Shown in pieces: positions 1 to 27,502 of a DNA stretch of 64,000 bases (positions are counted from its first letter, which is position 1; every line of letters begins with the position of its first letter). This DNA comes from Schmidtea polychroa. Its lineage: Eukaryota. Location: assembly GCA_044892525.1 (NCBI GenBank), contig CM097885.1, forward strand, positions 26,848,001 through 26,912,000. The letters are read 5' to 3'. The translations under genes were made by a program, and so were the position numbers. The notes under the pieces were generated by a model that did not search any database, was not told the DNA's origin, and saw nothing but the letters and a program-made list of their open reading frames with translations.

Positions 1-2
1 AA

Positions 3-1084: not shown

Positions 1085-1127
1085 TAAATGATTATATTTA
1101 ATAATATACACTTTAAGTTTTGAAGTT

Positions 1128-1604: not shown

Positions 1605-1626
1605 AACTTTTATATTTTATATATAT

Positions 1627-4600: not shown

Positions 4601-5783
4601 ATCCTTGTACTCGATGAGAGGATGATGATCAAGATCTCATAAAGCTTTGAAATTTTTTATCCAAACATAATGAGAAATTAAATCATTTGTATCAGATGAA
4701 ATCTTTTCTAATATTAATAAACTTATTGTATCAAAAGTTACGGTTGAAGAATTCACATCTTGATATGAAATATAAATTGGTATAACCTCGGCACCATCTA
4801 ATTCATAAATATTAGTTCTAAGTTGATTCAATCTTTCAAATTTTGACATGTGTTCTATTTTCATTGGGTGCTCAAAACCATCCCAGAATAAAATTTGATA
4901 TTCATATTGTCGATATTTAGATACTCGATAAGAATGTTGTTCTCGAGGATGTAAAGCTGATAGTATTGCCCATAGGAAACATTTATTATCTTTATTTTGA
5001 ACATTTATTATGTGTTTAGAAATAAAAGGTGTTGGAATATATGGTTTGGGAACTGCGGGATTTCCTTTCCAATTTTTTATTTGAATATTTTCAAAGGAAT
5101 GGAAAATTAAATTTGATTCTCCTAATTCCTGTTCAGATTGTTCTTGGGATTCTTGCAACTCTCGAATAACTTCTTTGATTGCTTTTTTAAATCCTTTCAT
5201 TGAATATAAATATTTATAATCAATTTGAATTCTAAATTTTAAAAAATTTTCGGATTTGTCTGTGGATTGGTCAATCTGTCGACAATATTTTGCGTTTATT
5301 CCTATTTTATATTTTATAATATTAAACCTTGCACCTTTGAAACTTTTTATAGCTTTTTCCATTGATTCTTTTGTTTCATCTGAATTTTTTTTTATTATAT
5401 GAAGAAATTGTGGATGCTCCAATTTCTTCACTACCAAATTCATCAACATGATTAAATTCATCCCAACCTTCATCTTCATCTTCACATTCTTTAGAGTGTT
5501 CCTTTAAATCAAATTTACTTTTGAAGACTTCATGATACTTGAGACATGAAAATGATTCTCTTATTTTTTTTATTCCAATACAATTTCTAAAATGTTTTTC
5601 AAACCCTAAAAATAAATATCTTTCTTTACACTTGGTACAAATTTTAGAGTTGTTATCATCTAATAAACTTGATTTCCTTAAATGATCTTTTGATTTTTTA
5701 TGTGAAATTAATCCTGTTTTTGATTTGAAACTCCTATTACATGAATCACAAAATAATCTTGGGAAGTTTTCTGAAGTAGCCAT
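1627..5783 (-). pseudogene. Protein-primed family B DNA polymerase (pPolB, endonuclease VII-domain type), broken by several frameshifts
   Basis: Successive ORF pieces carry an N-terminal C2H2 finger, NKDNKCFLWAIL, IYGDFEAI, CWMC..DHDH..GAVHNNCN, FHNLFGYD, YIDATALY, KLLNNSVFGK and MDTDS motifs. Confidence 0.9.
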
Positions 5784-6099
5784 TTTTATTTTTAGAAAAT
5801 TTTTTTAGTGGTTTATTTTTATAATATAAAATTTGACAACTTCATATTTTACATTGTTGGGTATTAGTAAATTTACTAATTCCCATAATTATTGAAATTT
5901 TCAAGAGGTAATATATATATTATATAATCATATTTATTATATAATCATTGCATGTGTATCATATATATGAACAAAAACCTTATATTTTTTTTATTCTTGG
6001 GTACCCAACATTATTAAAATTATTTTTATTTTAAAATTATTAAATCATTGTATACATGTATATTTAAATTATTATTATTTTAATATACATAGATTTGTA

Positions 6100-7835: not shown

Positions 7836-8104
7836 GTGATACCGGGAATTGGGAAAATGCATTTGCTGACTCATCCACAAATCCAGGAGACTATGCTATG
7901 GCCTTTTATGCTGGCCTTTTTGCTTATAACGGATGGAATTATCTGAATTGCTTGATAGAGGAAATGAAAAATCCTCGGAGAGACTTGCCATTGTCTATAT
8001 TGATATCTATGATTCTCATTATATTCATTTATGTATTGACAAATATGGCTTATTTTACAATTTTGATTCCTTCGGAGATTCTCAATACCAAAGCCGTTGC
8101 TGTA
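7836..8104 (+). CDS. SLC7 (LAT/y+LAT-type) amino acid transporter light chain, internal exon; upstream exons appear to lie outside the window
   Basis: AG/GT bounded; encodes AMAFYAGLFAYNGWNYLN..EEMKNPRRDLPLSI, the SLC7 TM6-7 signature. Confidence 0.92.
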
Positions 8105-8281
8105 GTAAGACATTGTTATGATACTATTTAGTAGCTACTATATAAGTTGATTAAAAATATGCTTGTTGCTATGATTCTCTCAATTTATCGGAAATTTTGC
8201 ATAAAAACATCTTGCCCGAAATATACTAAACATTCTGTATATACTCACTCCGAAATCGACTAATATTAGTAACATTTTCCA

Positions 8282-9137: not shown

Positions 9138-9968
9138 AAACTTCTTAAAGCACCGTGTCTAACACAATGTGTCATTCGATGGTACTTGAATAAATCTGAA
9201 TTAATGCATAAGTAATGGTAAGTAAATTCAATTTCCGTACGGAAACGTACTAAAGTACGGAAACTGAATTTTTAATTTTTTATAAATGTGTTTATTTAAT
9301 AATAATTTAAAAAATCGAATTTTTTTCTGACCTTTTTTATGATATAGGGCATTTCTTTTCTAAAAACTTGAACATCAATATTATTGCACGAAATATTTTT
9401 GGCAGGAGTTTTATGCTCAAGTGGTGCTTATGTTTCTTCATTAGATTTTGTTGCTAATTTCGTTATCATTCGTTGCGTTTCTCCCTTGGTCAAGTTGTTA
9501 TTGTAGTTCTTAGTAATTACCCATTAATAATTTTAGCTCACATCGAAACTTCCTGGTTCGTTTATTTATGAAATAAAAAATATTTCCCAGTTTACTAATC
9601 AATTGAAACACTTCTTTAATTAAATATGAAGTGATGATAAGAAACTTTTCGTTAGCTTCAGTTTTTTAAATTGATAATATCTAGAGCTAACCCAATGATT
9701 TCATACTTACCAAGGGACGTATTCATACATATTGTATTTTTAATTTCAAAATATTACGAATTTCATATTACTTGGTTTAAATTGAGTAGCACCTTATATG
9801 TAATTTTGTAAGTATTTATGATAAGTTTTGATATGGCATGAAGTAATTAAAAATTTTTTTATTTTCAATGATATATTTAACTTATACCTAAATATTCCAA
9901 TCAACTCTGTTAGTTCTAGTGTTAAAATTTAATTCAAATTGAAATGTATAGTTATTGTTTCAATTCAG

Positions 9969-10169
9969 ACTGTTGCTATTCGTCTTTATGGAGTTATGTG
10001 GTGGATTATGCCAATCTTTGTGGCAATGTCGACTTTTGGAGGGGTAAATGGCAATTTACTTGCTACATCTCGCATATTCTTTGTAGCTGCTCAAGAAAAT
10101 CAAATGCCAATGATATTAGAAACTATCAATATCAAATATTATACACCAGTTCCATCAGTCTTGTTTGTG
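9969..10169 (+). CDS. SLC7 transporter exon
   Basis: CAG/GT bounded, phase 0; WIMPIFVAMSTFGGVNG..TSRIFFVAAQENQMP..YTPVPSV. Confidence 0.92.
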
Positions 10170-11008
10170 GTATGAAACTATTGTTGTTTATTTAGTTCTT
10201 TTACAATTCTTGATACTATGGTTTTTATTTTCATTAGAAAATATCCCGGGGAATTTTGAAATTGAGCTAAAATCCATGGACTCCAGATTTGACGAAGTCC
10301 TAAGTCGTAATGCAGCGTATTTATTGTTTAGCGGGCGTTCCAAAGAATATTTTATAAAAAATAAATATGGGACTGACATAAGGAACGATAGATTGATTGG
10401 TTTCTTAATAGTATCTATAGAAAAGGACTTAACAAGATCGCAGAAATTAAAACGTTATTGTTAATTGCACTCTTATAGACAGAAAAAAATTTAATTAACC
10501 TCTTGGGCTGGCAATTAATCAATTGGCACATAGCGAACCCGTTCAAAGGATTCACCACTAGTTATATAAGTAAGTCGGGCGCTATACAATATACTTGAAA
10601 AAGATAGTGCAGAAAAACCGTGAGTATCAAAAAATATCGATATATTACTGATTTATAGTTTTCAAGCTCTCTATTTAATAAATTCAATGGAAAAAATAAT
10701 CAGTGGTGAAATTGGAAAAAAAGTGCTTATAATATATATATCTTGTTGATAAAAATGCCTACTTAGCAAAGTGATATGCATGAATTATCCATATTTAATA
10801 CAAATAGCAGTCAATGTGCATAACTTGCATACGATTATCCAGCGTAAATAGTGAACAATTAATTATAAAATTATTGTCTTATATTACAGGGATTTAATCC
10901 CGAATTTGACAATATAGTCTTTTATTGACAATATAAACTAATACTTTGACAATGTAAAATATTTAATGACAGAATAAATACAATTTTTGACAAAAAAATA
11001 TAACCTAT

Positions 11009-12274: not shown

Positions 12275-12325
12275 AGTAGGTAGTTATGTGCACTCTAGAT
12301 CCATGTGCACTCTAGATCCAGATAC

Positions 12326-12371
<46 letters not shown>

Positions 12372-13712
12372 AAACCCCCCCCTACTTTTTTTTTTTTTTT
12401 TTTTTTTTTTAATTTTTTAAAAGACCCCCCCCCCATATTTTTTTTTTTTAAATTTAAATTTTTGTTTTAATTATCGATTACGTAATAATTTTATTTTTTG
12501 TTTTAATCATCGATTACGTAATAATTTAAAATTTTTTTAAAACATCGATTACGTCATTGATTTTAATTTTTTATAAGAATTTTTTATGTCATTATACTTG
12601 AAATTTAATTCTCTGTTAAATGAGACTATGATGTAATCAAAAATCTGAAATTTCATTTTTAGTACACCATTTTTAAATTTACACATCTTTTTAAACAAAT
12701 TGAGATATTTTCACTCAAACAATATATAGATAGAATTTTAATCTCTATAAAATGACATCAATATTTACTTCAAATTCATAATCATAACACCTTAAACAAT
12801 GTATTTTTCAGCCAACTTTTACATACACACATATTTTCAACTTTTAAAAAATACAAATTATTCATCTATACTTAACTCATAGTAAATAATTATATTAAAA
12901 GACATATTAAAAGATGTATTAAAAACTAAACATTTATTAAAATCCTAGAGAAATTCGAGCACTATCTAATTTCCAAATCGGTGATATGACATCTTTCTCA
13001 TCCATTTTATATCCCTGTATTGAAATATTTACAAACCAGCTTTCACCATCTTTATATTCAATTTCTTCAAAGGCATCATGAAAACGAGAATTTCGATTGT
13101 TGATGATTATATTTCCATTGCAACTTAGATTCTTATTGATTTTCCCCAACACTTTATTTACTGCAACAACATCTTCTTTTGTTATATGAGCAATGAAACT
13201 TGAATATTGCGACTTGATCAATTTGACTGCATTTGAGAATTTATATGGAATTTCGTCTACCAAGAAATATATCTTATGGTTATGATACATTTGTACTGGT
13301 TTCACATCATTCTTGGCATGCTTCGTCTCAGTTATTTTCTTAATTGGGCTTGTTTCTTTCAATAAATTAGAAAATGTTTTCTCACCAAAAACGTTCTTCT
13401 TGGATTGCATTTTTTAAAAATAATGACTATGATGTCATTTTATCTCTCTTTTATACTTGTGTATAACCAATCAAATGAATGCATTTGTATTGCAAACAAC
13501 ATGCATGTGTCATTGACCTTCGTGTGTGACCTTTGTATGTGACCTTTACATTTGTGACCTTTGTATGTGAGTCATACATGGTTTGCATATGTATTGCAGA
13601 TGTATTGCAAATTAGTTAATTAAAACGTGTACTAATTAGTGTGATATTAAAAATATTATACTAATACATGTAACATAAAAATAGTGTACTATCACAAGTA
13701 ACAATATAAAAT
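12275..13712. repeat. Left terminal inverted repeat (~1.44 kb)
   Basis: Reverse complement of 25857-27305 apart from a few substitutions, homopolymer length differences and a ~19-bp indel. Confidence 0.95.
12937..13410 (-). CDS. TIR-encoded 157-aa protein, copy 1 (function unknown; possibly an OB-fold ssDNA-binding protein)
   Basis: Intact ORF; protein identical to 26179-26652; CCAAT and TATAAAAG upstream; AATAAA overlaps the stop. Confidence 0.8.
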   Translation of the reverse strand: MQSKKNVFGEKTFSNLLKETSPIKKITETKHAKNDVKPVQMYHNHKIYFLVDEIPYKFSNAVKLIKSQYSSFIAHITKEDVVAVNKVLGKINKNLSCNGNIIINNRNSRFHDAFEEIEYKDGESWFVNISIQGYKMDEKDVISPIWKLDSARISLGF

Positions 13713-13746
13713 TAGAAAACACTGTATTATAATAACTAAACATTTA

Positions 13747-14124
13747 TTAGTGATCTACAATTAATGAAAAGTGAGCTTTTCTCAACTCTTTCCTTAATAT
13801 CCATATATTATACTTCTTCTCTCTATCAATACATCCTTCGCATTTGTATGGGCATACTGATGGCTTGCTGCTGTCAACAGGGCCAAGATCGTCTTCTAAC
13901 GTCCTCAAGTGATCAAACAAAACCACATTCAAATCTATTCCGGTAGACATCCATATTCTGAATGGAATAATCTCTGGTGCCCAATAGATTAGATCCTTTA
14001 AAATATTCGGATATAATTCCCCCATTTTCCCCATCAGAATCTGTATCATTTTTTCTAAAACATTTAAAATTATAAATATAAAAAGCAATAATCAAAATAT
14101 ACCATTTACAGTTAAATTTGACAT
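13747..14124 (-). CDS. Polinton hypothetical protein, ~109 aa, two exons (14124-14103, 14054-13747)
   Basis: ATG at 14124; a 48-bp GT-AG intron (14102-14055) joins MSNLTVN-E-KMIQILMG.. in frame; CPYKCEGC motif; AATAAA at the stop. Confidence 0.65.
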
Positions 14125-14233
14125 TCTCAACTAGTACTTAATAAATGATTAAAGTGTTATTGTATATATATATATATACTTATTTCGATACACACCATCA
14201 ACCAATTGGATTCATGCATGGACGATTGCAACT

Positions 14234-14698
14234 TTAGTTTAGGAAAAAATTTAAAAATTCCATGTCATCAATTACTGATTTAATATCTTTAATAATTTTA
14301 TAAACAAGTAAATGATAATCCAATGTCTTTATACCGAGTATAACTACTTTACCACTATTGAATATGTTAACACACATTGGATTGTATTTTATATATCTTA
14401 ATGCCGGAAATATTTCTGGTTCGTAAATACATTTCATATACTTTGATAAATCATTTAAAATAACATTTGATTCAATATCAGCAGTAACTGTAATCGATTG
14501 AATTTGTAAATCCTTGATTTCATATTTTAAATCTTCAACTTTGATCGATTTTTTACATCCCATTATTCGACATTTACCTGACTTGAAAAATATTATTGAA
14601 TGTTTACCGCTTCTGTCAACAATTTGTTGTGGTTTACCTTTTGGAAATTCCATATGAGATACATCAAATCTACCTTTATAATTTATATTACTAATCAT
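14234..14698 (-). CDS. TATA-binding protein (TBP)-like protein encoded by the Polinton
   Basis: Two TBP repeats: IIFFKSGKCRIMGCK and YEPEIFPALRY..PMCVNIFNSGKVVILGIK (canonical TBP: LIFSSGKMVCTGAK and YEPELFPGLIY..PRIVLLIFVSGKVVLTGAK); also ISNI and IQSI strand starts. Confidence 0.88.
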   Translation of the reverse strand: MISNINYKGRFDVSHMEFPKGKPQQIVDRSGKHSIIFFKSGKCRIMGCKKSIKVEDLKYEIKDLQIQSITVTADIESNVILNDLSKYMKCIYEPEIFPALRYIKYNPMCVNIFNSGKVVILGIKTLDYHLLVYKIIKDIKSVIDDMEFLNFFLN

Positions 14699-14746
14699 AT
14701 TTTTTCAAATAATTTTTCATCAAGTAAACTGATGAATTAAAACAAA

Positions 14747-14753
14747 TATAAAC
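14747..14753 (+). promoter_or_regulatory. TATAAAC box, candidate late promoter (also at 15393, 15598, 18432, 20140; variants at 15963 and 19730)
   Basis: The same heptamer recurs 37-42 nt upstream of start codons in the capsid/packaging cluster. Confidence 0.6.
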
Positions 14754-14783
14754 AATATTAATATATATAACTAATTTTTTAAA

Positions 14784-15407
14784 ATGGAATTAAGAAATGA
14801 TGCTGTTTATCAAATTGTAGGTCCAAGCGGTAGTGGTAAAACTTTATTTGTTTGTAAATTATTACAATCAAAAATGTTCAAGTCAAAATTCAATAAAATA
14901 TATTGGCATAGGGGTGCTGATGACGAACATGGTTTGACGCAAGAACAATTCTGTAAATTAAAAATGACAATAATAAAAGGATTTGATAAAAACTGGTCAT
15001 CTAGATTACAACAGGGTGATGTAATTATTATTGATGATTTATATCAAGAAGCTAACAAAGAAAAAGATTTTAATAATTTATTTACAAAAATATCTCGACA
15101 TCATGGTGTAACAGTTATTTTTATAACACAAAATCTGTTTCATCAGGGTGGGAGTCATCGAACTCGGAACTTGAATGTTCAATATCTTGTTATTTTCAAA
15201 AATCCGAGGGATGCAACTGTTATTGATTTCATTGCAAGACAAGCATATCCAAACAATCGTAACTTTCTAATTGAATCATTTCAAGATGCAACCAAAATAC
15301 CCCATGGATATTTATTCTTTGATTTTACTCAGCAATGCATGGATGATGTACGTATTAGGACAGATATTTTTAATAAAGATGGTGTAACAGTTTATAAACA
15401 AAATTAA
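14784..15407 (+). CDS. FtsK/HerA-superfamily (A32-like) DNA packaging ATPase
   Basis: Walker A GPSGSGKT, Walker B IIIDD, SRHHGVTVIFITQN, RTRNLNVQY. Confidence 0.93.
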   Translation: MELRNDAVYQIVGPSGSGKTLFVCKLLQSKMFKSKFNKIYWHRGADDEHGLTQEQFCKLKMTIIKGFDKNWSSRLQQGDVIIIDDLYQEANKEKDFNNLFTKISRHHGVTVIFITQNLFHQGGSHRTRNLNVQYLVIFKNPRDATVIDFIARQAYPNNRNFLIESFQDATKIPHGYLFFDFTQQCMDDVRIRTDIFNKDGVTVYKQN

Positions 15408-15431
15408 ATTATGAATCTATTATAATAAAAA

Positions 15432-15602
15432 ATAGGGTTCAAGAAAGTTTTAATTAAACATGATAATCAATTAGTCAAAGTGAAGAAGAAACGTGTAAAG
15501 AAACATGTAAAGAAATCTATAAAAAAGATAGTAAAGAAATCTGTAAAGAAAACGTTGAAGAAAAGATCAATCAAAACACCTAAAAAATGGATTAAATTAT
15601 AA
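15432..15602 (+). CDS. 56-codon lysine-rich peptide, candidate DNA-condensing core protein; start codon is ATA (mutated ATG or splice-in)
   Basis: IGFKKVLIKHDNQLVKVKKKRVKKHVKKSIKKIVKKSVKKTLKKRSIKTPKKWIKL; fills the gap after the ATPase; TATAAAC 39 nt upstream. Confidence 0.55.
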   Translation: MGFKKVLIKHDNQLVKVKKKRVKKHVKKSIKKIVKKSVKKTLKKRSIKTPKKWIKL

Positions 15603-15635
15603 ACAAAGTTAAACGATAAAAAATAAATTTCAATA

Positions 15636-15967
15636 ATGAAATTACAACGTAGTATACCATATTTTAATGCATTGATAAAAGCACCACTCATGAAAAGAAC
15701 AAGTATTTTACAATCATTCCCACAATTTGTTGTGGACGATTTGCTTGAAATTATTGTTAATGTTGTGCGTGGCAATGTTGACATTAGTAAAGCGAAAAAA
15801 CTTGTATTGCAAAACCATAAAAAATCACTTTTATCGTTAGTAAATACAAAAAATAAACGTATAATGCGAAAAATTATATACAAACAGAAAGGGGGTTTAT
15901 ATCAGCTTTGATACCAATCGCATTATCTTTATTAGGTGGATCTGGTTTATTAGGTGAGCCTTCATAA
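15636..15967 (+). CDS. Small basic virion-type protein; hydrophobic C-terminal tail lies in the -1 frame after QKGG
   Basis: ORF 15636-15911 ends KQKGGLYQL; the -1 frame from 15896 reads FISALIPIALSLLGGSGLLGEPS* (stop 15967). Confidence 0.65.
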
Positions 15968-16001
15968 ACGTTGAATTATTTTAATATCATCATCATAAAC
16001 A

Positions 16002-16235
16002 ATGGGTCAATTACCTATGGGACATTTACCAAACCTTATTCTAAATTTTAAATCATCGTGTTGTAATGGAGAAGATATGGACAAACCCAAAAGATCCAGC
16101 CGGTTTCGGTGGAGTCGAAAAGTTAAAGAAAAAAGTACCCAAATCAAAAAAGGAGACTCAAAAATGGTTGTCGAGTCAACTGGCATACAATTTAAACAAG
16201 CCAATGTTGAAACGGTTTCCCACAAGAGCATATAA
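16002..16235 (+). CDS. 77-aa ORF overlapping the integrase start, with N-terminal MG and SSCC (possible lipidation)
   Basis: ATG in AACAATGG context; CATAAAC 39 nt upstream; overlaps the integrase in another frame. Confidence 0.4.
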   Translation: MGQLPMGHLPNLILNFKSSCCNGEDMDKPKRSSRFRWSRKVKEKSTQIKKGDSKMVVESTGIQFKQANVETVSHKSI

Positions 16236-17085
16236 AACATATGGTATTAATGATTTATGGCAAATGGACTTAATGGAAATGATTCCATTTTCTAAAATTA
16301 ATAAGGGTTACAAATATATTTTGACATGTATTGATGTCTTTAGTAGATTTGCTCGAGCTATACCATTGAAAACCAAATCTGCTAGTGAAATGGCTGTTGC
16401 AATAAAAACAATGTTTAAAAATGGTAAACCAGATAATTTACAAACTGATTTGGGTAAAGAATTTTATAATAGCAAAGTTAAAGAAAATCTAAAGGGAATA
16501 AATCATTACTCTGTTTTTTCACAATTCAAAGCTGCTCATGTGGAAAGGTTTAATAGAACATTAAGAGATCGATTGAAAAAATATTTTGTACATCAAGGTA
16601 ACAAAACTTGGATAAATGTTTTACCGAAAATAATTCATAGTTACAATCATTCCGAACATGGAGGTCTAAAGGGTATGAGACCGATTGATGTAACATCTAA
16701 AAATAGTATGAAAATATTATTATCACAACAAGATGTAACAAAAATTAAGAAACCTAAATATAAAGTTGGTGATCATGTTAGAATAAGTAAAATATCGGCT
16801 TCACCATTCATTAAAAATTTTGACAACAACTGGAGTGACGAAGTCTTTCAAATATCGAAGATTAATACGAAACAGAGTCCCGTTATGTATGTTATTAAAG
16901 ATATTGATAATAATGAAATCCAGGGTAAATTTTACGAACAGGAACTGCAAGTTATTCCGACACCATCTGTCTTTAGAATTGAAAAAATTCTTAAATCAAA
17001 ATATAAAGGTAAGGATAAACAATATTACGTCAAATGGCATGGATATCAAAACCCAACTTGGATATCAGCATCTCAAATTGAATGA
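16066..17085 (+). CDS. Retroviral-type (rve) DDE integrase with C-terminal chromodomain
   Basis: WQMDL, LQTDLGKEF and VERFNRTL catalytic motifs; FRIEKIL..YYVKWHGY..TWI chromodomain. Confidence 0.96.
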   Translation: MEKIWTNPKDPAGFGGVEKLKKKVPKSKKETQKWLSSQLAYNLNKPMLKRFPTRAYKTYGINDLWQMDLMEMIPFSKINKGYKYILTCIDVFSRFARAIPLKTKSASEMAVAIKTMFKNGKPDNLQTDLGKEFYNSKVKENLKGINHYSVFSQFKAAHVERFNRTLRDRLKKYFVHQGNKTWINVLPKIIHSYNHSEHGGLKGMRPIDVTSKNSMKILLSQQDVTKIKKPKYKVGDHVRISKISASPFIKNFDNNWSDEVFQISKINTKQSPVMYVIKDIDNNEIQGKFYEQELQVIPTPSVFRIEKILKSKYKGKDKQYYVKWHGYQNPTWISASQIE

Positions 17086-18098
17086 ATAGAAACAATTTTT
17101 TCACTATTTTACCAAGCAATAGCTGTCCATTAATTCATCCGAATAATGAGGCTAGTAAATTTATCGTTGAGTTACAAAATCCCATTTACCTGCATGACAT
17201 GTGGGAAGTTGCTTTGCTTGATTACACATTTGTGTACAATACATTTCCATTTTACAGTAATTCTAAGATTGAATATAAAGAAATTGCATCGAAATCAGTT
17301 AGCAGCTTTTATGTTATTGAACCCGAAGATGATGAAACGACAATAAAAGAATTAAATAATGATTGTTACATGTATATTACCAAGGGAGTTTTAAATATTT
17401 GTTGCGATTACCATCCATTCGAGATAACATTTGAAGATGCAAGCGTAAAAAGATTAGGAGTTCCTGAACCAACAATTATAAGTCACACTGATACATTTCA
17501 AATTGTAATTCCGCCGTATGTTGATGGCATTATGAATAATGTAATTAGAATGAAGTTAACGTACAATTGTTTACAAGATTCAGTTTTCACATTTACTGAT
17601 GATTTATACATAAAGAAGCTTGAAGATTTAACCAACTATTTAACAAGTAATTGCCCCCATATTTTCAAGTCTGTTGAACTGAATGAAAATGTCTTCAAAT
17701 TCAGTCTCGGTGAAAACATTAAAGAAGTTATATTTGATAAAAACTTGGTCAACACATTTGGATTACAAAAACAATTATATAATGACAAACAATTTGGTGG
17801 AGTTCGTAAAGGAAAAATATTTAATCATCATCAACAAATGTTCATCTATAGCGATATTATTGATCCGATAAATGTTGGTGATTCACTGGTACCTCTTCTG
17901 AAAGCGGTGTGGATTAAGAAATATGAGCAAGATGAAGTTGTGCAAATACAAATAGAAAATCCTATGTATTTACCAGTTGGGAGAACATGTATAAACAATA
18001 TAGAAATTAATATACGCGATGATAGCGGAAATTTAATCCGATTTGCAAACGATTCAAAAACACACGTAACTTTACATTTTAGAAAACAAGATGTCTAA
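17082..18098 (+). CDS. Minor capsid protein (penton, Polinton PX-like)
   Basis: N-terminal FFTILPSNS..NEASKF..L.NPIYL..WEVAL and C-terminal IYSDII..VGD..PLL..PMYLPV..IEINIRD..G..TLHFR. Confidence 0.85.
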   Translation: MNRNNFFTILPSNSCPLIHPNNEASKFIVELQNPIYLHDMWEVALLDYTFVYNTFPFYSNSKIEYKEIASKSVSSFYVIEPEDDETTIKELNNDCYMYITKGVLNICCDYHPFEITFEDASVKRLGVPEPTIISHTDTFQIVIPPYVDGIMNNVIRMKLTYNCLQDSVFTFTDDLYIKKLEDLTNYLTSNCPHIFKSVELNENVFKFSLGENIKEVIFDKNLVNTFGLQKQLYNDKQFGGVRKGKIFNHHQQMFIYSDIIDPINVGDSLVPLLKAVWIKKYEQDEVVQIQIENPMYLPVGRTCINNIEINIRDDSGNLIRFANDSKTHVTLHFRKQDV

Positions 18099-18477
18099 TC
18101 CTGATATAGTTTCTCTTTATGCCAATAGTCAAACTGGTGGCGAATTACCATATTTTGTTGGCAAACAATATGGATCCGGATGGTTAAAAACTATTGGTCG
18201 GTTTGCTCTTCCTATTCTTAAACGTATAGGAAATTTTGGTATGAAAACAGCTAAAGATGTAATAATGAATAATGCAAAAATATTACCATCTTTAAAATCC
18301 AATGCCATATCTGAATTCAAAGAGGCATTACCAGATGTGATTTCTTCATTACCAAATGTAATGGGATCAAATGAAGCATCAGAATCTGAAGAGTCTGAAC
18401 CACAGCCTAAGCGAAGAAAACATCGAAGGTATATAAACAAACGAATGACAGGACGTGGAACTATATTCGAAAAATGA
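18091..18477 (+). CDS. Small virion protein with amphipathic helix (adenovirus pVI-like membrane-lytic candidate)
   Basis: QTGG and QYGSG motifs followed by amphipathic WLKTIGRFALPILKRIG; basic tail PKRRKHRR; lies between the penton and major capsid genes. Confidence 0.7.
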   Translation: MSNPDIVSLYANSQTGGELPYFVGKQYGSGWLKTIGRFALPILKRIGNFGMKTAKDVIMNNAKILPSLKSNAISEFKEALPDVISSLPNVMGSNEASESEESEPQPKRRKHRRYINKRMTGRGTIFEK

Positions 18478-19697
18478 TTTGTGGAAAAACTGAATTATGT
18501 ATTTTTGATCGACCGACTCCTCAGGCGGTTATAGAATATGCGACATTTGAAGACGTATTCCCCTTTAATTCAATTGTTGATAATAAAAGCGATATTGAAT
18601 TCAAAATAACTGGTTCTCATACTGAATATCTCGATTTGAATGATACATTACTCTACATTAAATTAAAGGTTACAAATAATAATGGAAAGGAATTACCGGT
18701 TACTTCAGATGCAAAAGCTAACAATTACTTGTTCCATACACTTTTTAGTGATGTTATTGTTGGACTCAATAGTCAAAAGATTGAAGGTGGAAACGGAAGA
18801 TATACACAAAAAGCTTTAATTGAAACTATTTTAAATTATAATGGAGATAGTAAAAACATTTGTCTGGCTCCTATGGGTTACATTCCATCTGATAAGGAAA
18901 GAACAGCATTAATTGCCGGTTCTAAATTAGTTTCCCTATGTTCGTCATTGCAAATAGATTTTATGGATCAACCAAAATATTTACTTCCAGGAGTTAATGT
19001 TAATGTAACACTGAAAAGAAACCCATCATCATTCAGTATACATTCGCTAACAGATGAACCAAAGATAAAGGTATTGGAAGCAAAATTAATGATTCGCAGA
19101 GTTCGAGTTGAACCATCAGTTTTAGCAGGGCATCAAATAGGGTTAAATTCTAAAAATGCTATATATCCAATTAGAAGTAAAGAAACTGTCGACTTTACAA
19201 TCAGTAAAGGTTCATCGTCATTTTACAAGGAACAATTATTTATTGACAAAAGATTACCAAATTTCGTTTTAGTGGCATTTCAAACTGAATCTCAATTTAA
19301 GGGAACATATAAGGAATCCAGCTCAATCTTTAAACATTTGGATATTACATCAATCACTTTAGCCAAAAATAATGACTATCGAGAAACATATACACAAAAC
19401 TTTGACACAAATGATTATACTACAACGTATATGCAAAGTATTGTGAGAAATCTGGGGTATTTGGATAAAAACATGAACTGTGGGATTACACTTGAAGATT
19501 TTAAAGATAAATATCCATTCTTTACATTTGTTTTGTCTCCAGATTTTGATTTGAATCAAAGTCAATTACCACAACAAGGAAATTTAAAATTGAGTGTAAA
19601 GTTTAATAAATCACTCGAGGAATCGGTTTATGTAATAGTATACGGAGTTTTCGAAAGAGAATTACAAATTACTGCAAGTCGATCAGTATTGGTTTGA
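18474..19697 (+). CDS. Major capsid protein (double jelly-roll, Polinton PY-like)
   Basis: KTELCIFDRPTPQAVIE, YLDLNDTLLYIKLK, NNYLFHTLFSDV, QPKYLLPGV; size and position fit a Polinton MCP. Confidence 0.88.
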   Translation: MICGKTELCIFDRPTPQAVIEYATFEDVFPFNSIVDNKSDIEFKITGSHTEYLDLNDTLLYIKLKVTNNNGKELPVTSDAKANNYLFHTLFSDVIVGLNSQKIEGGNGRYTQKALIETILNYNGDSKNICLAPMGYIPSDKERTALIAGSKLVSLCSSLQIDFMDQPKYLLPGVNVNVTLKRNPSSFSIHSLTDEPKIKVLEAKLMIRRVRVEPSVLAGHQIGLNSKNAIYPIRSKETVDFTISKGSSSFYKEQLFIDKRLPNFVLVAFQTESQFKGTYKESSSIFKHLDITSITLAKNNDYRETYTQNFDTNDYTTTYMQSIVRNLGYLDKNMNCGITLEDFKDKYPFFTFVLSPDFDLNQSQLPQQGNLKLSVKFNKSLEESVYVIVYGVFERELQITASRSVLV

Positions 19698-19762
19698 AAG
19701 TATTTCAAACTGTATTGGTTTAAACGTAGTATAAATGAATTAAACAATGGAAACAATTTATT

Positions 19763-20144
19763 ATGGAGTAAGTTTTTAATTAATAATTAATTTTATTTGA
19801 TTAGTTCTATTCAGGTTAATCGAATTGGAAAAATGTTGTTGGGGAATCAGTTTACTGGAGTATTCCCATTAGATAAAATCCCCTATCTGAACGCAAACCA
19901 AGCTATAGTCGTCAATACTCAATCATCAAATCTTGAAGGAGAACATTGGATTGCAATATATGTGAAACCTGATAAAATACATGTTTTTGATCCGATGGGA
20001 TATTATTATCCAGATATAATGATAACAAAACTACAAACAGTTGGTAAACCCCTTCTGTATAATAAAATTCGTTATCAAAATCCAATGACTCAAACATGTG
20101 GTCAACATTGCCTTGCATGGCTAAATTCAATGTTATATGTATAA
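19763..20144 (+). CDS. Adenain-like cysteine maturation protease; start probably supplied by a short spliced 5' exon
   Basis: NTQ..GEHW, FDPMG and Q..TQTCGQHC give a His-Asp-Cys triad; donor GTAAGT at 19768 with in-frame acceptors at 19804 (ATG 19763, MDSIQVNR..) or 19814 (ATG 19747). Confidence 0.88.
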
Positions 20145-20176
20145 ACGATGTAGTTTAATAAATCTTATTAATAAAA

Positions 20177-20596
20177 ATGTCTTGTTATTTTATTGACTTT
20201 GTAGGTTATAATGATTATGCTGGTGGAATAATTATTAAAGAATTATGTATTATGAATGTAAATAATATTTTACGCCCAAAGTATTGGTTATTTAATGATT
20301 TACCATTTTGGGCTGGACGTGAAAATTCAGATCGATTGGAATGGTATGAAGGTGAAGATTCGTTTTGTCCAACATGTATATTGAGAGATGTAGAAGATAC
20401 AAGTGGAATTTTCTATGTCACTGATCAAGATAAACTTACAGTTTTGAAAAATTATTTCCCAAATTTAAGATTAATAAAATATTCAATCCAATTATCAGAA
20501 TATTTTCCTGATAATATCTTGTGTCCTTACCGTGATCATTCTAATTGTGCTTACAAAAATTGTTTAATTGCTGTGTTAGATTATTTAAAAAATTAA
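20177..20596 (+). CDS. DEDD/DnaQ-like small protein with C-terminal Cys/His cluster, probably nuclease-inactive
   Basis: FIDFVGY..IIKEL, LEWYEG and CPYRDH.NCA pattern; the DxE glutamate position is V. Confidence 0.5.
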   Translation: MSCYFIDFVGYNDYAGGIIIKELCIMNVNNILRPKYWLFNDLPFWAGRENSDRLEWYEGEDSFCPTCILRDVEDTSGIFYVTDQDKLTVLKNYFPNLRLIKYSIQLSEYFPDNILCPYRDHSNCAYKNCLIAVLDYLKN

Positions 20597-20916
20597 TAAA
20601 GTTTTTGATTAAAAATTATATTATTATTAATTTTGTTATTATTACTCATATGCATTAAGATTGCAGTTTAAATGCATGATTAATCATGTTCTCTTAGTTT
20701 GTGTTAAATTTTTATTTTGTAATGTGTGTAAGTTTTGCTTCCTAATGTGTGAAAAGTATTTCACATTGTGTGTAAATTATATTTCATAGTGCGTGTGCAT
20801 GTAATACTCTCAATTTCTATTGGGTGAATACATATTACACAATTTATGATATATAAAGCAATGTTTAAAAATATACCATCACTTTTTTATATACCTAAAA
20901 TTTTAAACTCAACAAA

Positions 20917-21652
20917 ATGTCAAGAAATAATCAAGGAAGCCAAAGCGGAAACAGTGTCAAGAATGGTAAGATTTATTTATTTATTTATTTGTCATTATTA
21001 TTGATATAATTTATAGGTCTTAATCGTAATTTCAACAAAAGATCTAACAATAACAGTGAAAACATGCCAAATGGTATTTCGTTATTATTATTAAATTTAT
21101 AATTATTTATTCTTTTTAGATTTTATTATAAACAACATGAATGGATGCATTATAAATGGACGAAATATGAACGAGTCAAGTACAAATAACAATAATAATG
21201 GTAACAATTTGATTGCGCGCAGTACTGCATATGGAAAAAATGATTGCAAAATATCAAAAAGAAAAGTTACATGTAAGATTTTCATTTTTATTTAAAGATT
21301 TTTAATGAATTTTTATAAGGTTTTATTAAAAGATTTATTAATGTTTTTATTTTAATAATAATTAATACTTTAAATACAATAATTATAATATAGTACTTTG
21401 AATAATAATAATAATAATGAAATATTATGTAACAAGTTAAATTTATTTTTATCAATAATTTATTTTGATTGAAAATATATTTAACCTATTATATAATAGG
21501 TTAAATATATTTTGTATTGATTATGTTTAAACTATTACGTAATAGGGTAAATATATTTTGCATTAAGTATGTTTAAACTATTATGTAATAGGTTAAATAT
21601 ATTTAAGTAAAATTACCTTTTTGATAAAAATATATTTATATTATTTATTGAA

Positions 21653-21719
<67 letters not shown>

Positions 21720-21778
21720 GAATAAGAATAAGAATAATAAGAATAATAAGAATAATAAGAATAATAATAATAATATTA

Positions 21779-21835
<57 letters not shown>

Positions 21836-22272
21836 TCTTTCAGGTTCAAAATATCAAAATTATTGTAATAGTTCATTACATGATGATTGTGATTTCATAA
21901 TGGAAAAATATTACAAACATAGCCATAATCATACCATCTTTTTTATTTGCCCTGTTTGTATGAACCCCGAGACTGTAACATACATGGAGTTTTATCATCA
22001 ACATAGGGATCATTTAACTCAGTATAATTTAAAGAAAAAAGACCTTATTAATTTATTAAAAAATAATATTTCCAATACCTATAATCCCGCTATAAATCAT
22101 AATAATGATACTACAAGTACTAATAATAATAATAATAAGCCTAATGTAAATAATAAAAGAAAAATTAATTTACCTAATCTAAAACCCTCTAAATTTGTTA
22201 AAAAAGATCTTATCGTTATTTCAGACTCTGATGATGAGGTCATGCCTTTGATAGTTAACTCTTATTCACTTT

Positions 22273-22341
<69 letters not shown>

Positions 22342-25300
22342 TTACATCAACTTCTACAGAAGTCATTATTAATCAACAAGGTGGTTCACTTGAACCTGAA
22401 ACCATATTCGATTTAAATAAAACACACGCAGAAGTTAAAATGGATGTTTCATCCTTAAATTTAAAAACAGTTTCGATCCCTACTCAGTTAATAAATGAAT
22501 TAAATAAAGTTTCATCCGAGATGGGTTCAATAAAAATTCAATTTTGTTTGAAAGTGGAATTTGTAAAAGATGACGAATTTCAATCATTCGTTATTTCAAA
22601 TTCTGCTAGACCCATGAGTGATACCTTCTTAGAAGATGGTATTGATTTATTAAATGAAAAAAAATTTAAAGTTAACGAAAAGGGAAGCAACTGGGTTATA
22701 CATAAAATTGAATATATTAGTTTTATAATAACAAAATATTCGCAAATATCCAGATTAACTGGCCGTGGATATATTCCTACACCAGAAACATTATTAAATA
22801 AAAAATGTACTGTTAATGTTAAAAATACAAATGATGAATGCTTCCTATATAGTATTTTATCTATTTTGAAATATAATAGTATTAGTACCAATAGATCTAA
22901 GCCATATAATTATAATACTTCGGAATTAAAATTCGATCCTGCAGATCTCCCTATGCGCCTTTGTAATATTTCTAAATTTGAATCCCAAAACCCTGGTTTA
23001 TCGATAAATGTTTTAACTTATAACGAAAATATATTAAATGATGTTAAGAATACTGAAGAAGTTATGAAACATCCTTATGTTGACATAATTTATCGATCTA
23101 AAGTTATTGGGGGGACAACAATTAATTTAATTTTGTTAGAAGATTTTGACACATATCATTACATAGGTGTTACTAATCTTGATAGACTTTTGAATTGTAA
23201 CGATTCTAGTGTAACTGCTGTTAGGATTTGTAGTAAATGGTGTTCGAGATGCTTAAATGGTTTTCGAAATCCTAATTCTTTCATGAGACACAAGGGTTTG
23301 TGTGATAAAAATCAGTTAGGGACCACTCTCTTTACATTACCCGAAGATAAATATCTTAGTTTTACAAATTGGTCAAAGATTGTCACTCCTCCATTTGTTA
23401 TTTATGCCGACTTTGAGGCAATTTTACCTAAAGATAATAAATACTATCAAAAACATTTACCAATCTCAGCTGGTTTTGTTTTTATAAATAATTTTACAGG
23501 GGATAAATTTTATAAAAGTTTTATAGGATTGGATTGTGTTGAACAGTTTCTTCATGAACTTGAAGAAATTGGTAAGCAAATAGTGGCTCCATATTTTGAA
23601 ACACGATATAGGAAAATGATGTTTTTTAGTAGTATTGACAAAATAAACTTTTCTTCGGCTGTAAATTGTCATTTGTGTAAGAAAACTTTAGTAAATCCAG
23701 TAAGAGATCTTGACCATTTTTCGGGTAAATATTTAGGTGCAGCTTGCTCAACTTGTAATCTTTCTCGAAGAATTAGACCGGTTTTACCAGTTATTTTTCA
23801 TAATTTGAGAGGATATGATCTCCATCATATTCTCAAATTTGGCTTAGGTAAATTTAAATCATGGAATATTAATTGTATTCCTATAACTAGTGAAAAATTT
23901 TTAAGTTTATATGCAAGAATTGATGGATTAACTATAAAATTTATCGATTCTTGTCAATTTATTAACGATTCCTTAAAAAATGCTGTACAAACATTAACTA
24001 CATTTCCATTGACTAATTCTGAATTTAACGGAGTAATTGTTAATAGTAAAGGCATATTCCCATATGATTTTGCAACTAGTTTAGAAGTGCTTCAGGGAAC
24101 TCCCCAATTACCTCCAATTTGGGATGGTGTTACTGAAGTAGAATATGATATGGCTCAGCGCATTTGGGATGACCATAATTGTAATTCACTTTTGGATTAC
24201 ATGATGATATATTTAAAATTAGATGTCTTTTTACTTGCGGACTATTTCCAACAGTTTAGAGCAAAATCAATAGCTCATAACAGATTGGAACCCTTAAACT
24301 TTTTAGGCATTCCCGGTATGTCATGGAACTCTGCACTCATGACTTTAGATCATCCAATTGAGTTGATCCAAGACATGGAGATTTATAATTTCTTTGAGGG
24401 TGGGATTCGAGGGGGATTAACATTTGTTAATAAACATTACGTAAAATCAGATGAAAACACAGAGTTGCTCTATATAGATATTAACAACCTATATGGTTGG
24501 GCACTTAGCCAGAAACTACCAGATGGTAATTTTAAGTGGATTAACGATGAAATAAAATTAAATAAGATTTTGGATGATTGTATGAATGTTGACTTGGAAT
24601 TACTCACATTCGGTTATACTGTTGAAGTCGATTTGGAAATTCCAGAATCGATTCATGATAAGCTTGACGATTTCCCTGTTGCAGCTGAAAAGATCTGTGC
24701 ACCAGGATCCAAAGTGGAGAAGTTGATGCTTATCCACTATCCTAAAAAGAATTATGTAGTTCATTGGAGACTTCTCCAGCTTTATCTAAATATTGGGGTA
24801 AAGGTCACTAAAATTCATCGCGCTATACAATTTGAACAGTCATCAATATTTAAAAATTATATAGATACTAACACACAACTTAGGGCATCATCAACAAACA
24901 CATTAGATAAAAATTATTTTAAACTATTAAACAACAGTCTATACGGTAAGACTGTCGAAAACCTAAAGAAACGAATTAATTTAAGACTTTGCAATTCAGC
25001 CCAAAAGGTATTAACATATTGTTCTAAACCTAATTTCAAAAGGACTACTAAAATCGATGACGACTTAATATCTGTTCTATTAAGAAAAGATTTAATATGT
25101 TTAAATAGACCAAGTTATATTGGTCAATCAGTTTTGGATTTATCAAAACTTCGTATGTACCAACTTCAGTACATTGATTTAGAAAAATATCGTATAGAAT
25201 TTAATTGTAAAATTAATATAGTTGCTGGGGATACAGATTCGTTCTTTTTGGAAATTAAAAATTGCAAATTAAATTCTCTTTTACCCGCAATGATAAGGGA

Positions 25301-25820
25301 TAATTTATTAGATACCTCTAATTACGAGCCAACACATTCATTATATTCAAAAAACCTTGACTCTGTAATAGGGAAATTTAAAGATGAAAGCAAAGGTCTT
25401 GGATATGATGAATGGATATTTTTAAGACCAAAATGTTATAGCATGAAGGGTAGTAAGGGATGTATGAAAGCGAAGGGGGTCACAATGAAAGATACTGGAC
25501 TAACTCATCAGTCGTATCTGAATTGTTATAATAATAATGAGATTTATACAGTACCACAATTTAGGATAACGAGTAAAAACCATCAACTTTTCAGTATTAA
25601 AAATAATAAGAGGGCTTTAACTAATGCTGACGATAAGCGCAATTGGGTACTTAAAAATAAAAGTTATGCGTATGGTCATTATAGGGGGGGTGGTATGGTT
25701 ATGGCTGATGATTCTGATGAAGAAATGTTGCTGCCCATAGTTGATCCAGATGAAGATTTGCAATATCATCCTCATTTTCCAAATGATGATGGTTGTCAAT
25801 TAATAAATTTTATGATATAA
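20917..25820 (+). CDS. Protein-primed DNA polymerase B (pPolB); predicted exons 20917-20965, 21017-21073, 21120-21272, 21844-25820 (~1411 aa)
   Basis: 1306-aa ORF with IYADFEA, FHNLRGYD, YIDINNLYG, KLLNNSLYGK, GDTDS, RPKCY and an EndoVII-like CxxC..CxxC region; three phase-1 GT-AG introns add 105 in-frame codons. Confidence 0.95.
21472..21513. repeat. Perfect 42-bp palindrome in the predicted pPolB intron 3
   Basis: AAAATATATTTAACCTATTAT followed by its exact reverse complement. Confidence 0.9.
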
Positions 25821-26014
25821 AAAATTTGTTTTCATTCTATTTTTAATCGTTACAAAATTTTTATATTGTTACTTGTGATAGTACACTATTTTTATGTTGT
25901 TATAGTATTTTTATGTTACATGTATTAGTATAATATTTTTAATATCACACTAATTAGTACACGTTTTAATTAACTAATTTGCAATACATCTGCAATACAT
26001 ATGCAAACCATGTA

Positions 26015-26141
26015 TGACTCACATACAAAGGTCACAAATGTAAAGGTCACATACAAAGGTCACACACGAAGGTCAATGACACATGCATGTTGTTTGCAAT
26101 ACAAATGCATTCATTTGATTGGTTATACACAAGTATAAAAG
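26015..26141 (+). promoter_or_regulatory. Promoter/enhancer of the TIR gene: TGACTCA, four AGGTCA half-sites, ATTGG, TATAAAAG
   Basis: TGACTCA 26015; AGGTCA at 26029, 26044, 26057, 26070; ATTGG 26118; TATAAAAG 26134, 45 nt before the ATG; mirrored in the left TIR. Confidence 0.6.
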
Positions 26142-26178
26142 AGAGATAAAATGACATCATAGTCATTATTTTTAAAAA

Positions 26179-26652
26179 ATGCAATCCAAGAAGAACGTTT
26201 TTGGTGAGAAAACATTTTCTAATTTATTGAAAGAAACAAGCCCAATTAAGAAAATAACTGAGACGAAGCATGCCAAGAATGATGTGAAACCAGTACAAAT
26301 GTATCATAACCATAAGATATATTTCTTGGTAGACGAAATTCCATATAAATTCTCAAATGCAGTCAAATTGATCAAGTCGCAATATTCAAGTTTCATTGCT
26401 CATATAACAAAAGAAGATGTTGTTGCAGTAAATAAAGTGTTGGGGAAAATCAATAAGAATCTAAGTTGCAATGGAAATATAATCATCAACAATCGAAATT
26501 CTCGTTTTCATGATGCCTTTGAAGAAATTGAATATAAAGATGGTGAAAGCTGGTTTGTAAATATTTCAATACAGGGATATAAAATGGATGAGAAAGATGT
26601 CATATCACCGATTTGGAAATTAGATAGTGCTCGAATTTCTCTGGGATTTTAA
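26179..26652 (+). CDS. TIR-encoded 157-aa protein, copy 2
   Basis: Protein identical to copy 1; one synonymous CTA/CTG difference seen near the 3' end. Confidence 0.8.
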   Translation: MQSKKNVFGEKTFSNLLKETSPIKKITETKHAKNDVKPVQMYHNHKIYFLVDEIPYKFSNAVKLIKSQYSSFIAHITKEDVVAVNKVLGKINKNLSCNGNIIINNRNSRFHDAFEEIEYKDGESWFVNISIQGYKMDEKDVISPIWKLDSARISLGF

Positions 26653-27352
26653 TAAATGTTTAGTTTTTAATACATCTTTTAATATGTCTTTTAATATAAT
26701 TATTTACTATGAGTTAAGTATAGATGATTAATTTGTATTTTTTAAAAGTTGAAAATATGTGTGTATGTAAAAGTTGGCTGAAAAATACATTGTTTAAGGT
26801 GTTATGATTATGAATTTGAAGTAAATATTGATGTCATTTTATAGAGATTAAAATTCTATCTATATATTGTTTGAGTGAAAATATCTCAATTTGTTTAAAA
26901 AGATGTGTAAATTTAAAAATCGTGTACTAAAAATGAAATTTCAGAATTTTGATTACATCATAGTCTCATTTAACAGAGAATTAAATTTCAAGTATAATGA
27001 CATAAAAAATTCTTATAAAAAATTAAAATCAATGACGTAATCGATGTTTTAAAAAAATTTTAAATTATTACGTAATCGATGATTAAAACAAAAAATGAAA
27101 TTATTACGTAATCGATAATTAAAACAAAAATTTAAATTTAAAAAAAAAAATATGGGGGGGGGGTCTTTTAAAAAATTAAAAAAAAAAAAAAAAAAAAGTA
27201 GGGGGGGGGGGTTTAAAAATTTTAAAAAAAAAAAAAAAAAAAAAAGGGGGGGGGGTATCTGGATCTAGAGTGCACATGGATCTAGAGTGCACATAACTAC
27301 CTACTTTTATATTCTTAATTTTCTTATTTATTTTATGTCATTTTGTTTTTAG

Positions 27353-27502
27353 AGTCTCGTATCGTTGGTATATTTGTGTTTTTCGGACATAAATATTTTG
27401 ATAAATTATATGGGTTTTGTCAATTGGTTAGCTATTGGAGTAGCTGTATTTACTGTGATCTGGTTTCGATACAAAAATCCTGACAAACCGAGACCAATTC
27501 GA
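27353..27502 (+). CDS. SLC7 transporter exon
   Basis: TAG/GT bounded, phase 0; DINILINYMGFVNWL..WFRYKNPDKPRPIR. Confidence 0.92.

Follow-up and report, generated by a model that had tools for sequence, protein, structure and literature searches.

The stretch of DNA analysed here (the window; 64,000 nucleotides of Schmidtea polychroa, G000:C1:26848001-26912000) comes from an AT-rich host genome of 781 Mb with four large contigs and contains a Polinton/Maverick element of 15,031 bp (12275..27305). The element has the long terminal inverted repeats (TIRs, ~1.4 kb, with the arms 12392-13697 and 25892-27197 being 98% complementary) and the 6-bp target site duplication (TSD; TTTATA) expected of a Polinton/Maverick, together with the genes for protein-primed DNA polymerase B (pPolB), rve integrase, A32-type ATPase and adenain protease. 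It also encodes a small protein related to the TATA-binding protein (TBP), and most of its virion genes are preceded at a narrow distance by a sequence that resembles a TATA box with C at its seventh position, YATAAAC(R). The function of this box, and the likelihood that it is read by the element's own TBP, are the subject of this report.

The TBP-like gene (14234..14698, − strand, 154 aa; PF00352, E 2.7e-15) lies head-to-head with the gene for the packaging ATPase (14784..15407, +; PF04665 Pox_A32, E 4.8e-6), and the virion genes that follow are all on the + strand. They comprise a short Lys-rich (basic) open reading frame (ORF; 15432..15602), a small conserved core-like ORF (15636..15911) with no Pfam family and with its frame broken near the 3′ end in this copy, a small MG-starting ORF (16002..16235) that overlaps the integrase in another frame, the integrase with its chromodomain (16066..17085; PF00665, E 1.3e-10, and PF00385), a putative penton or minor capsid protein (17082..18098), a small conserved ORF (18091..18477), presumably PZ-like given its position, the putative major capsid protein that it precedes (MCP; 18474..19697), the adenain-like protease (19763..20144; PF00770, E 1.1e-4) and an ORF (20177..20596) without a Pfam match that was called DEDD-like in a preliminary description of this DNA made from the sequence alone. 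The penton and MCP ORFs also have no Pfam match that would identify a double jelly roll, and their labels follow that description and gene order. The protease gene appears to have a 5-nt first exon and a 37-nt GT-AG intron (19768-19804), a layout that is identical in 8/8 relatives inspected, as read from genomic sequence rather than RNA. The main exon of pPolB (21900..25820, +) has no Pfam match itself and aligns with a PF03175-positive polymerase over 1165 aa (E 2e-84).

The preliminary description had reported TATAAAC motifs at a fixed distance before the start codons of the virion genes, and all of its motif positions and distances are present as given. An intergenic box (14747..14753) stands 37 nt upstream of the ATPase ATG (14784) and is retained in 29/30 sister loci. 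The next lies within the 3′ end of the ATPase gene (15393..15399), 39 nt before the basic ORF at 15432; the ORF has no start codon in this copy, and in 21/23 sister loci containing the stretch the ORF begins at that same distance from the box. A third box covers the stop codon of the basic ORF (15598..15604, −38 to the ORF at 15636), and others lie within ORF 18091 (18432..18438, −42 to the MCP ATG at 18474) and over the protease stop codon (20140..20146, −37 to the ORF at 20177). Two CATAAAC boxes (15963..16000) precede the integrase region, the first (15963) at −39 to ORF 16002 and the second (15994) at −72 to the integrase ATG and −8 to ORF 16002, the latter being retained at −66 in sister families. 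All of these boxes are on the + strand, as are those of the next paragraph.

Two of the earlier statements required modification. The penton and 18091 genes do lack the box at the usual spacing, yet boxes were found farther out: a TATAAAC within the 3′ end of the penton gene (17990..17996, −101 to ORF 18091), which had been overlooked and which is kept at −98 to −107 in 8/10 relatives, and a GATAAAC variant (17014..17020) at −68 to the penton ATG. The TATAAAT at 19730, previously taken as a variant of the new box, is part of TATAAATG (19730..19737, −33 to the ATG of the protease mini-exon at 19763) and should not be counted as such because it fits the canonical consensus TATAWAWR. With regard to the integrase region, a transcript from the 15994 box, only 8 nt before the ATG of ORF 16002, would skip that ORF and begin at the integrase ATG. 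The MG-starting ORF 16002-16235 is itself a conserved overprint of the integrase with its own box, and ORFs resembling it are found 32-35 nt past the box in the loci L046, L054 and L085.

The signal of the box is positional rather than window-wide. There is no enrichment of the 7-mer over the whole window, with 37 matches compared to 29.7 ± 5.1 in shuffled sequence and 9/100 shuffles reaching 37. The + strand of 14700-20600 contains 8 YATAAAC compared to a shuffle mean of 1.9 and a maximum of 4 (30 shuffles), and in the right flank of the element YATAAAC is found at −60..−28 before 11/1205 ATGs.

Relatives of the element were obtained by a profile scan with an alignment of the TBP-like protein, which yielded 80 metagenome loci, surrounded by Polinton genes that are arranged in several ways. 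These were pooled with the window element and seven host-genome loci, ORFs with aligned N-termini were kept, and the set was dereplicated at 85% identity; the elements are related by descent and the counts are not independent events. The positional enrichment over shuffled sequence that had been suggested as a check proved to be strong, since YATAAAC(R) occurs at −60..−28 in 60/75 dereplicated genes of the ATPase, core-like, DEDD-like, MCP and penton classes, compared to a mean of 1.6 and a maximum of 6 in 1000 dinucleotide shuffles. By class it precedes 20/21 ATPase genes, 11/11 ORFs like that at 15636, 12/15 DEDD-like ORFs, 10/13 MCP genes and 7/15 penton genes (10/15 of the last within 120 nt), and for all virion-module classes together it is found at −60..−28 in 67/106 and within 120 nt in 90/106. 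A de novo search with no prior gave ATAAAC as the top 6-mer (64/75); over 200 shuffles, no 6-mer exceeded 18. The spacing has a mode of −37 and a main peak at about −33 to −42, with −32 the shortest distance within the main peak, and this narrow spacing in a single orientation is that of a core promoter element at the TATA position. The box has T42/C18/G4 at position 1 and A53/G9/T2 at position 8. Its flanks are poorly conserved, and the core is retained across ATPases that are 36-82% identical to that of the window and in loci of 27-47% GC from many metagenomes. Stand-alone phospholipase-A2-like ORFs (PF08398; L096, L099, L105, L110) and a RING-finger ORF in L085 were also seen 33-40 nt behind a box.

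Since 4/5 of the window boxes overlap the end of an upstream ORF, one could take the motif for a poly(A) or termination signal belonging to that gene, or for a side effect of the coding sequence. At the 3′ end of the ATPase gene, TAT/CAT AAA CR is found in 17/18 full-length genes, Tyr-to-His and Gln-to-Arg changes included, and the synonymous TAC and AAG, which make up about one third of the corresponding codons elsewhere, are avoided at the box. Box-compatible codons are present at the penton 3′ end in 8/9 cases, the box before the MCP has the form xxY ATA AAC in 10/10 homologues with four different preceding residues, and at the protease end the box sits in three different phases. Because residues and frames change while the motif stays, these comparisons indicate that what is conserved is the DNA motif itself and not the encoded protein. 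The box also precedes the ATPase gene where the upstream gene points away (the window, L093 and L116), AATAAA is rare at the box region (3/75), and separate AATAAA/ATTAAA signals follow 3/4 of the overlapping boxes checked. A role in 3′-end formation or coding is thus extremely improbable.

Forkhead factors recognize RYAAAYA in either orientation, and the ATAAACA contained in 53/75 upstream regions agrees with this consensus, which would make the box a site for a tissue-specific activator of the host. The box is found on the sense strand in 60/75 and on the antisense strand in 0/75, however, GTAAACA is absent (0/75), ATAAATA occurs once (1/75), and 11/75 boxes have G or T as their last base, contrary to the consensus. 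The spacing is also narrow and there is no separate TATA box downstream. The strict orientation, the lack of GTAAACA and the rarity of AATAAA argue against both forkhead sites and poly(A) signals, and we regard the forkhead explanation as highly unlikely. From its position, orientation and conservation at the DNA level, the box is very likely a functional promoter element.

A second class of promoter in the element has canonical TATA boxes, and here the preliminary description was correct. The TIR gene (left copy 12937..13410, −; right copy 26179-26652, +) has TATAAAAG at −45 with ATTGG (26118) upstream and an initiator-like motif, and the pPolB leader promoter (20819..20885, +) consists of ATTGG at 20819, TATATAAAG at 20850 and an initiator-like TCACT ~30 nt further. 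Initiator-like TCA[GTC][TA] follows 17/22 canonical boxes, with a peak at +32/33, versus 8/60 YATAAAC boxes. The product of the TIR gene is a probable single-stranded DNA-binding protein (SSB; Atlas lead 0.89): its AlphaFold model (pLDDT 82.6) is closest to the Enc34 SSB (Z 7.1, rmsd 3.7, 109 aligned), DUF2815 (Z 7.2) and T7 gp2.5 (Z 6.9), all with middling Z scores. Since a gene with a canonical box has a predicted fold like those of the T7 gp2.5 and Enc34 SSBs, the canonical class looks like one of replication-type genes. The TBP genes of the clade have YATAAAC at the usual spacing in 0/52 cases and canonical TATA in 20/52, compared to 3.7 in shuffled sequence. They also show an enrichment of TGTTTTA(AT) upstream (12/52 versus 1.1 expected; for example at ~14736-14747 of the window, −) and of TCATAA/TCATTA immediately before the ATG, which is possibly a third promoter type.

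Comparison of TBP-positive with TBP-negative Polintons, another of the suggested checks, also favored a link between the box and the TBP, with YATAAAC in 0/57 genes of the TBP-negative Polintons checked. Six related IMG/VR Polinton contigs without a TBP match contributed 0/42 genes, and in 6/6 of them a canonical TATA box lies 40-46 nt upstream of the ATPase. A second Polinton lineage of the host genome (window 1-5800; L124, L125, L130), with no TBP match in the stretches read, contributed 0/15. The tally leaves out L138-L143 and L147, which are not Polintons or have too few genes, and hardly any genes of the virion module came from L129 and L131. Close TBP-negative relatives numbered 0 in viral contigs (scans with the ATPase; ATPase, MCP and pPolB alignments) and 0 in genome contigs (ATPase alignment). 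Among the candidates that were set aside, L126, a host-genome family taken as a possible TBP-negative control, turned out to carry both TBP and box, and L042, the sole viral-contig match to the TBP alignment (E 7e-4), is a phage without Polinton genes.

The second lineage is present in high copy, with 143 scored ATPase matches that are all identical to the query, and TAAA(A) or TAATAA directly precedes the ATG in 12/15 of its genes. Poxvirus late promoters have the form TAAATG. These starts of the second lineage may be poxvirus-late-like or may represent stop-start packing in AT-rich DNA.

A third lineage, consisting of three contigs in bacterial metagenome-assembled genomes (L144, L145, L146), carries another TBP-like gene, which looks unrelated, and in two of the contigs a TFIIB-like gene lies next to it (L144:8684-9906 and L146:13597-14797, both −; Pfam E values for the TBP-like/TFIIB-like pair of 9e-9/3.5e-5 and 3e-4/1.6e-10). 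In these three contigs YATAAAC is found in 0/23 genes and TATTTAA in 11/23, one of two TBP genes included. The TATTTAA lies 43-72 nt upstream of the ATPase, MCP and neighboring genes and fits the TATTWAA consensus of herpesviruses; in the YATAAAC clade it is found at −80..−28 in 4/75. From these tallies and those of the TBP-negative elements, the type of box tracks the type of TBP across about four lineages. Repeated acquisition of a TBP by Polintons, with a private TATA variant paired to each, is a tentative proposal to which we would give a little less than an even chance.

The TBP-like protein of the element matches PF00352 with 56.4 bits (cut-off 22.9; residues 64-127), and its model (pLDDT 96) has the two-repeat saddle fold of TBP. 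Solved TBPs match over 143-145 residues with Z scores of 12-12.5 and an rmsd of 2.4-2.8, the best being archaeal TBP (2z8u; Z 12.5, rmsd 2.5, 143 aligned) and human TBP (1cdw; Z 12.2). A search of the host genome with the protein gave 150 scored matches, in families that are ~99%, 66% and 64% identical to the window protein. In addition, about six TBP-like loci of the cellular kind are present in the host, 34-66% identical to a cellular TBP (G000:C1:244962237, C2:182637102, C1:41962680, C2:132285308, C1:42000218 and C1:195751353). In a tree, 30 Polinton TBPs are apart from nine cellular-type TBPs with a support of only 92/93, the backbone being open such that no donor can be named; P0207, labelled beforehand as canonical, groups among the Polinton proteins. 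The 13 ORFs of the window element scanned with Pfam, which did not include all short or spliced ORFs, contain no TFIIB-like ORF, and the same scan detects TFIIB in L144 and L146.

Residues of 74 homologues were mapped by a profile alignment and the yeast contact list (Table 1 of PMC12529657, in part). The equivalents of N69 (72/74), F116, F190 and F207 (each 73-74/74) and, for the most part, P191 (61/74) are kept, and the acidic residues of the C-lobe stirrup are canonical, with E at the equivalents of E186 (71/74) and E188 (73/74). The DNA face has been altered in the N-terminal repeat (V71 to N and V122 to R, each 73/74; T124 to M, 74/74) and also in the C-terminal repeat (N159 to S, 73/74; V161 to T, 69/74; L205 to N, 74/74; T215 to L, 56/74). 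The protein therefore departs from canonical TBP in lacking the full set of four intercalating Phe and at N159, T124/T215, V71, V122, V161 and L205, at every one of which the best host TBP locus read is canonical. The N-lobe is not that of a full eukaryotic TBP, having no helix in the model (DSSP) and being ~26 residues (13 + 13) shorter in the near clade; the distances between its anchor residues are 34-40 versus 47 and 17-22 versus 32 in most near-clade members, and 44 and 27-31 in the distant clade.

The C-lobe of TBP reads the TATA box over its 5′ half and the N-lobe over its 3′ half (PMC1636458, in part), in agreement with what the preliminary description had stated of the N-terminal repeat. 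The EPD consensus, YWTAWADN, excludes C alone at position 7 (PMC1935006, in part), and the Y at position 1 of the new box (T42/C18) resembles that of EPD. Given the reading of the 3′ half by the N-lobe, R44 and P23 are placed to affect position 7, and to this extent the earlier suggestion that an altered N-terminal repeat matches the altered base is supported in part. The C-terminal repeat, however, has been rebuilt as well (N159, V161 and L205 changed in 69-74/74), which makes the N-repeat match one option among several, and that it alone explains C7 is possible but somewhat doubtful. There was no clear link between T or C at position 1 of the box and the P191 equivalent.

We favor, with fair confidence, a reading in which YATAAAC(R) is a late-type core promoter at the TATA position that serves the virion module in a broad clade of Polintons, with the element's TBP as its main reader; the narrower claim, that the element's own TBP reads the box, is likely to hold. 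What we infer for the binding of the viral TBP to the box, TFIIB recruitment, start sites and early/late timing is as follows. Host TBP/TFIID would first transcribe the genes with canonical TATA and initiator, which are those for the SSB-like protein and pPolB and, in many members of the clade, that for the TBP. The element's TBP (145-175 aa in the clade) would next bind YATAAAC, to which host TBP is expected to bind poorly because of C at position 7, and would recruit host TFIIB and Pol II via its intact acidic stirrup, giving short-leader mRNAs that start ~30 nt downstream of the box without an initiator. In TBP, a basic patch of the N-lobe binds TFIIA, TAF1, Brf1/2 and Mot1, and acidic residues of the C-lobe bind TFIIB (PMC7221094, in part). 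The shrunken N-lobe may thus free the viral TBP from the host regulators that dock there (TAF1, TFIIA, Mot1/BTAF1, Brf1).

Several observations weigh against this reading of a late promoter with a dedicated TBP. Within the clade, neither the protein nor the box varies more than slightly and there is no internal co-variation, such that the association rests on about four lineages. The controls are distant lineages and partial contigs (L132-L137, 5-12 kb), and the whole elements could still encode a TBP. The five classes that make up the 75 genes were picked post hoc from data already inspected, and the fit at −60..−28 is poorer for the integrase (5/14), PZ-like (2/10) and protease (0/7) genes. 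In all four host families the box of the protease, at a constant position, is TATAAAT and thus of the canonical type (in L046 and L054 it is [AG]ATAAAC), the window's own TBP gene lacks a canonical box at the usual distance, and the pPolB leader promoter of one family has TATAAAC inside TATATAAAC, where both boxes overlap. Intercalating F99 is replaced by Pro in 73/74, which could weaken DNA binding, the mapping being less sure in this shortened region. Finally, wild-type TBP crystallises on a C7 box (PDB 1QN3).

The last of these points, where host-type TBP accepts C7 via Hoogsteen pairing (PMC4402545, in part), leads to an explanation in which the box is a deliberately weak TATA for host TBP/TFIID or for a host TBP paralogue that becomes active only at high template number, with the element TBP acting elsewhere by titrating TFIIB or regulators. 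The loss of F99, the half dozen cellular TBP-like loci of the host and the occurrence of TATATAAAC within a promoter with CCAAT and initiator would all be accommodated. A weak box could be made in many ways, yet C7 is fixed, with TATAAA[AGT] in just 4/75, and the box persists across the wide range of GC content and the many metagenomes noted above. The DNA face of the element TBP is invariant rather than decayed, and TBP-negative relatives have a canonical TATA at the same gene. A weak box for the host machinery is accordingly judged to be unlikely.

Virophage promoters copy the late motifs of their helper viruses. By analogy, the box might be read by the machinery of a helper virus, or the element TBP might bind it as a repressor or latency factor. 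The TFIIB-binding acidic residues are kept in 71-73/74, as would be expected of an activator; transcription by nuclear Pol II is suggested by the GT-AG introns of the protease and pPolB leaders, and the box occurs together with a TBP gene of the element itself. A repressor or a helper virus is therefore quite improbable, and activation by the element's own TBP is preferred.

Some further features of the locus may be noted. The short leader exons of pPolB also have GT-AG introns (20918-21120), as does the protease at 19763-19804. Vertebrate Mavericks are reported to be intron-less (PMC8097293, in part). One contig of a run guessed to be RNA skips the GT-AG stretch of the pPolB leader, and a short contig terminates in A's where the genome is A-rich (16151); the two observations have no bearing on the box. 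The element itself apparently lies, as judged by eye, within an intron of what we take to be a host amino-acid-transporter-like gene (window 7898-8131, 9944-10195 and 27410-27500).

With its TIRs, 6-bp TSD and genes for pPolB, integrase, ATPase, protease and capsid-like proteins, the element resembles published Polintons, Mavericks and adintoviruses (PMC8502044, PMC8097293, both in part). In PMC8502044 and the preprint 10.1101/697771, in the parts available, 'TBP' appears solely as a figure label; the former does not use 'promoter' in its available text and mentions neither TBP nor TATA in the part of its supplement covered, the rest of which may annotate the gene. The available part of PMC8097293 has no mention of TBP or TATA, nor that of PMC7221094 of Polintons. 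Full-text searches, with most subscription papers and Repbase outside their coverage, gave no description of the YATAAAC box or of the system and no paper joining TATAAAC, TBP and Hoogsteen pairing, and PMC2396422 has nothing on C7. Vertebrate Mavericks have yet to be observed as particles (PMC8097293, in part), and the control of capsid genes in integrated Polintons, and with it the existence of a true viral cycle, is the question that the present finding addresses. With the protein and the 8-bp box both defined, that control becomes testable.

Compared to cellular TBP (PF00352), the Polinton protein has the same two-lobed saddle and C-lobe stirrup, and its box has the same length, orientation, spacing and Y at position 1; it differs in the near-clade N-lobe, shorter by 13 + 13 residues, in eight DNA-face substitutions, in C at position 7 of the box and in the little use of an initiator. 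If the proposed pairing is correct, it would be a natural altered-specificity TBP that is useful for studying how TATA boxes are recognized and as an orthogonal part for transcription. The TBP-like proteins of large DNA viruses, which are the best matches in BFVD, are also divergent and have lost the N-lobe regulatory surface (PMC7221094, in part). They mostly lack the host-type stirrup residues and are accompanied by a viral TFIIB (PMC7221094, in part), whereas the Polinton protein has a host-like stirrup and no TFIIB-like ORF was found among the element ORFs scanned. If Polintons did acquire TBPs repeatedly, the YATAAAC clade would use a bare TBP of 150 aa that works with host TFIIB, and the third lineage another TBP with its own TFIIB and TATTTAA.

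The closest parallel is with the ORF24/BcRF1/UL87 proteins of beta- and gammaherpesviruses, which have a TBP fold whose DNA face is more polar (the equivalents of V122, L205 and V161 are changed in both) and which direct host Pol II to a variant TATA box, TATTWAA, before structural genes (PMC12529657, in part). ORF24 is a multi-domain protein of 752 aa in a six-protein complex; it retains the four Phe but not the acidic residues that bind TFIIB (PMC12529657, in part). In contrast, the Polinton protein is a bare saddle of 154 aa with three Phe, an acidic stirrup and the box YATAAAC, no partner gene was found, and the element ORFs include neither a large TBP mimic with a domain that binds the Pol II carboxy-terminal domain (CTD) nor the five partner proteins of a herpesvirus viral preinitiation complex (vPIC). 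By analogy, the Polinton system appears to work like the late transcription of the herpesvirus TBP mimics without being a member of that group. If so, it would add a Polinton case, much simpler, to the TBP-based late control of herpesviruses and giant viruses, and would be the smallest known late-transcription switch, in which the DNA specificity of one protein is orthogonal to that of host TBP and the regulators of host TBP find no surface to dock on. The YATAAAC box is real and highly conserved across the clade, and with the element's TBP as its probable reader it would represent a form of the viral-TBP late control known from herpesviruses.

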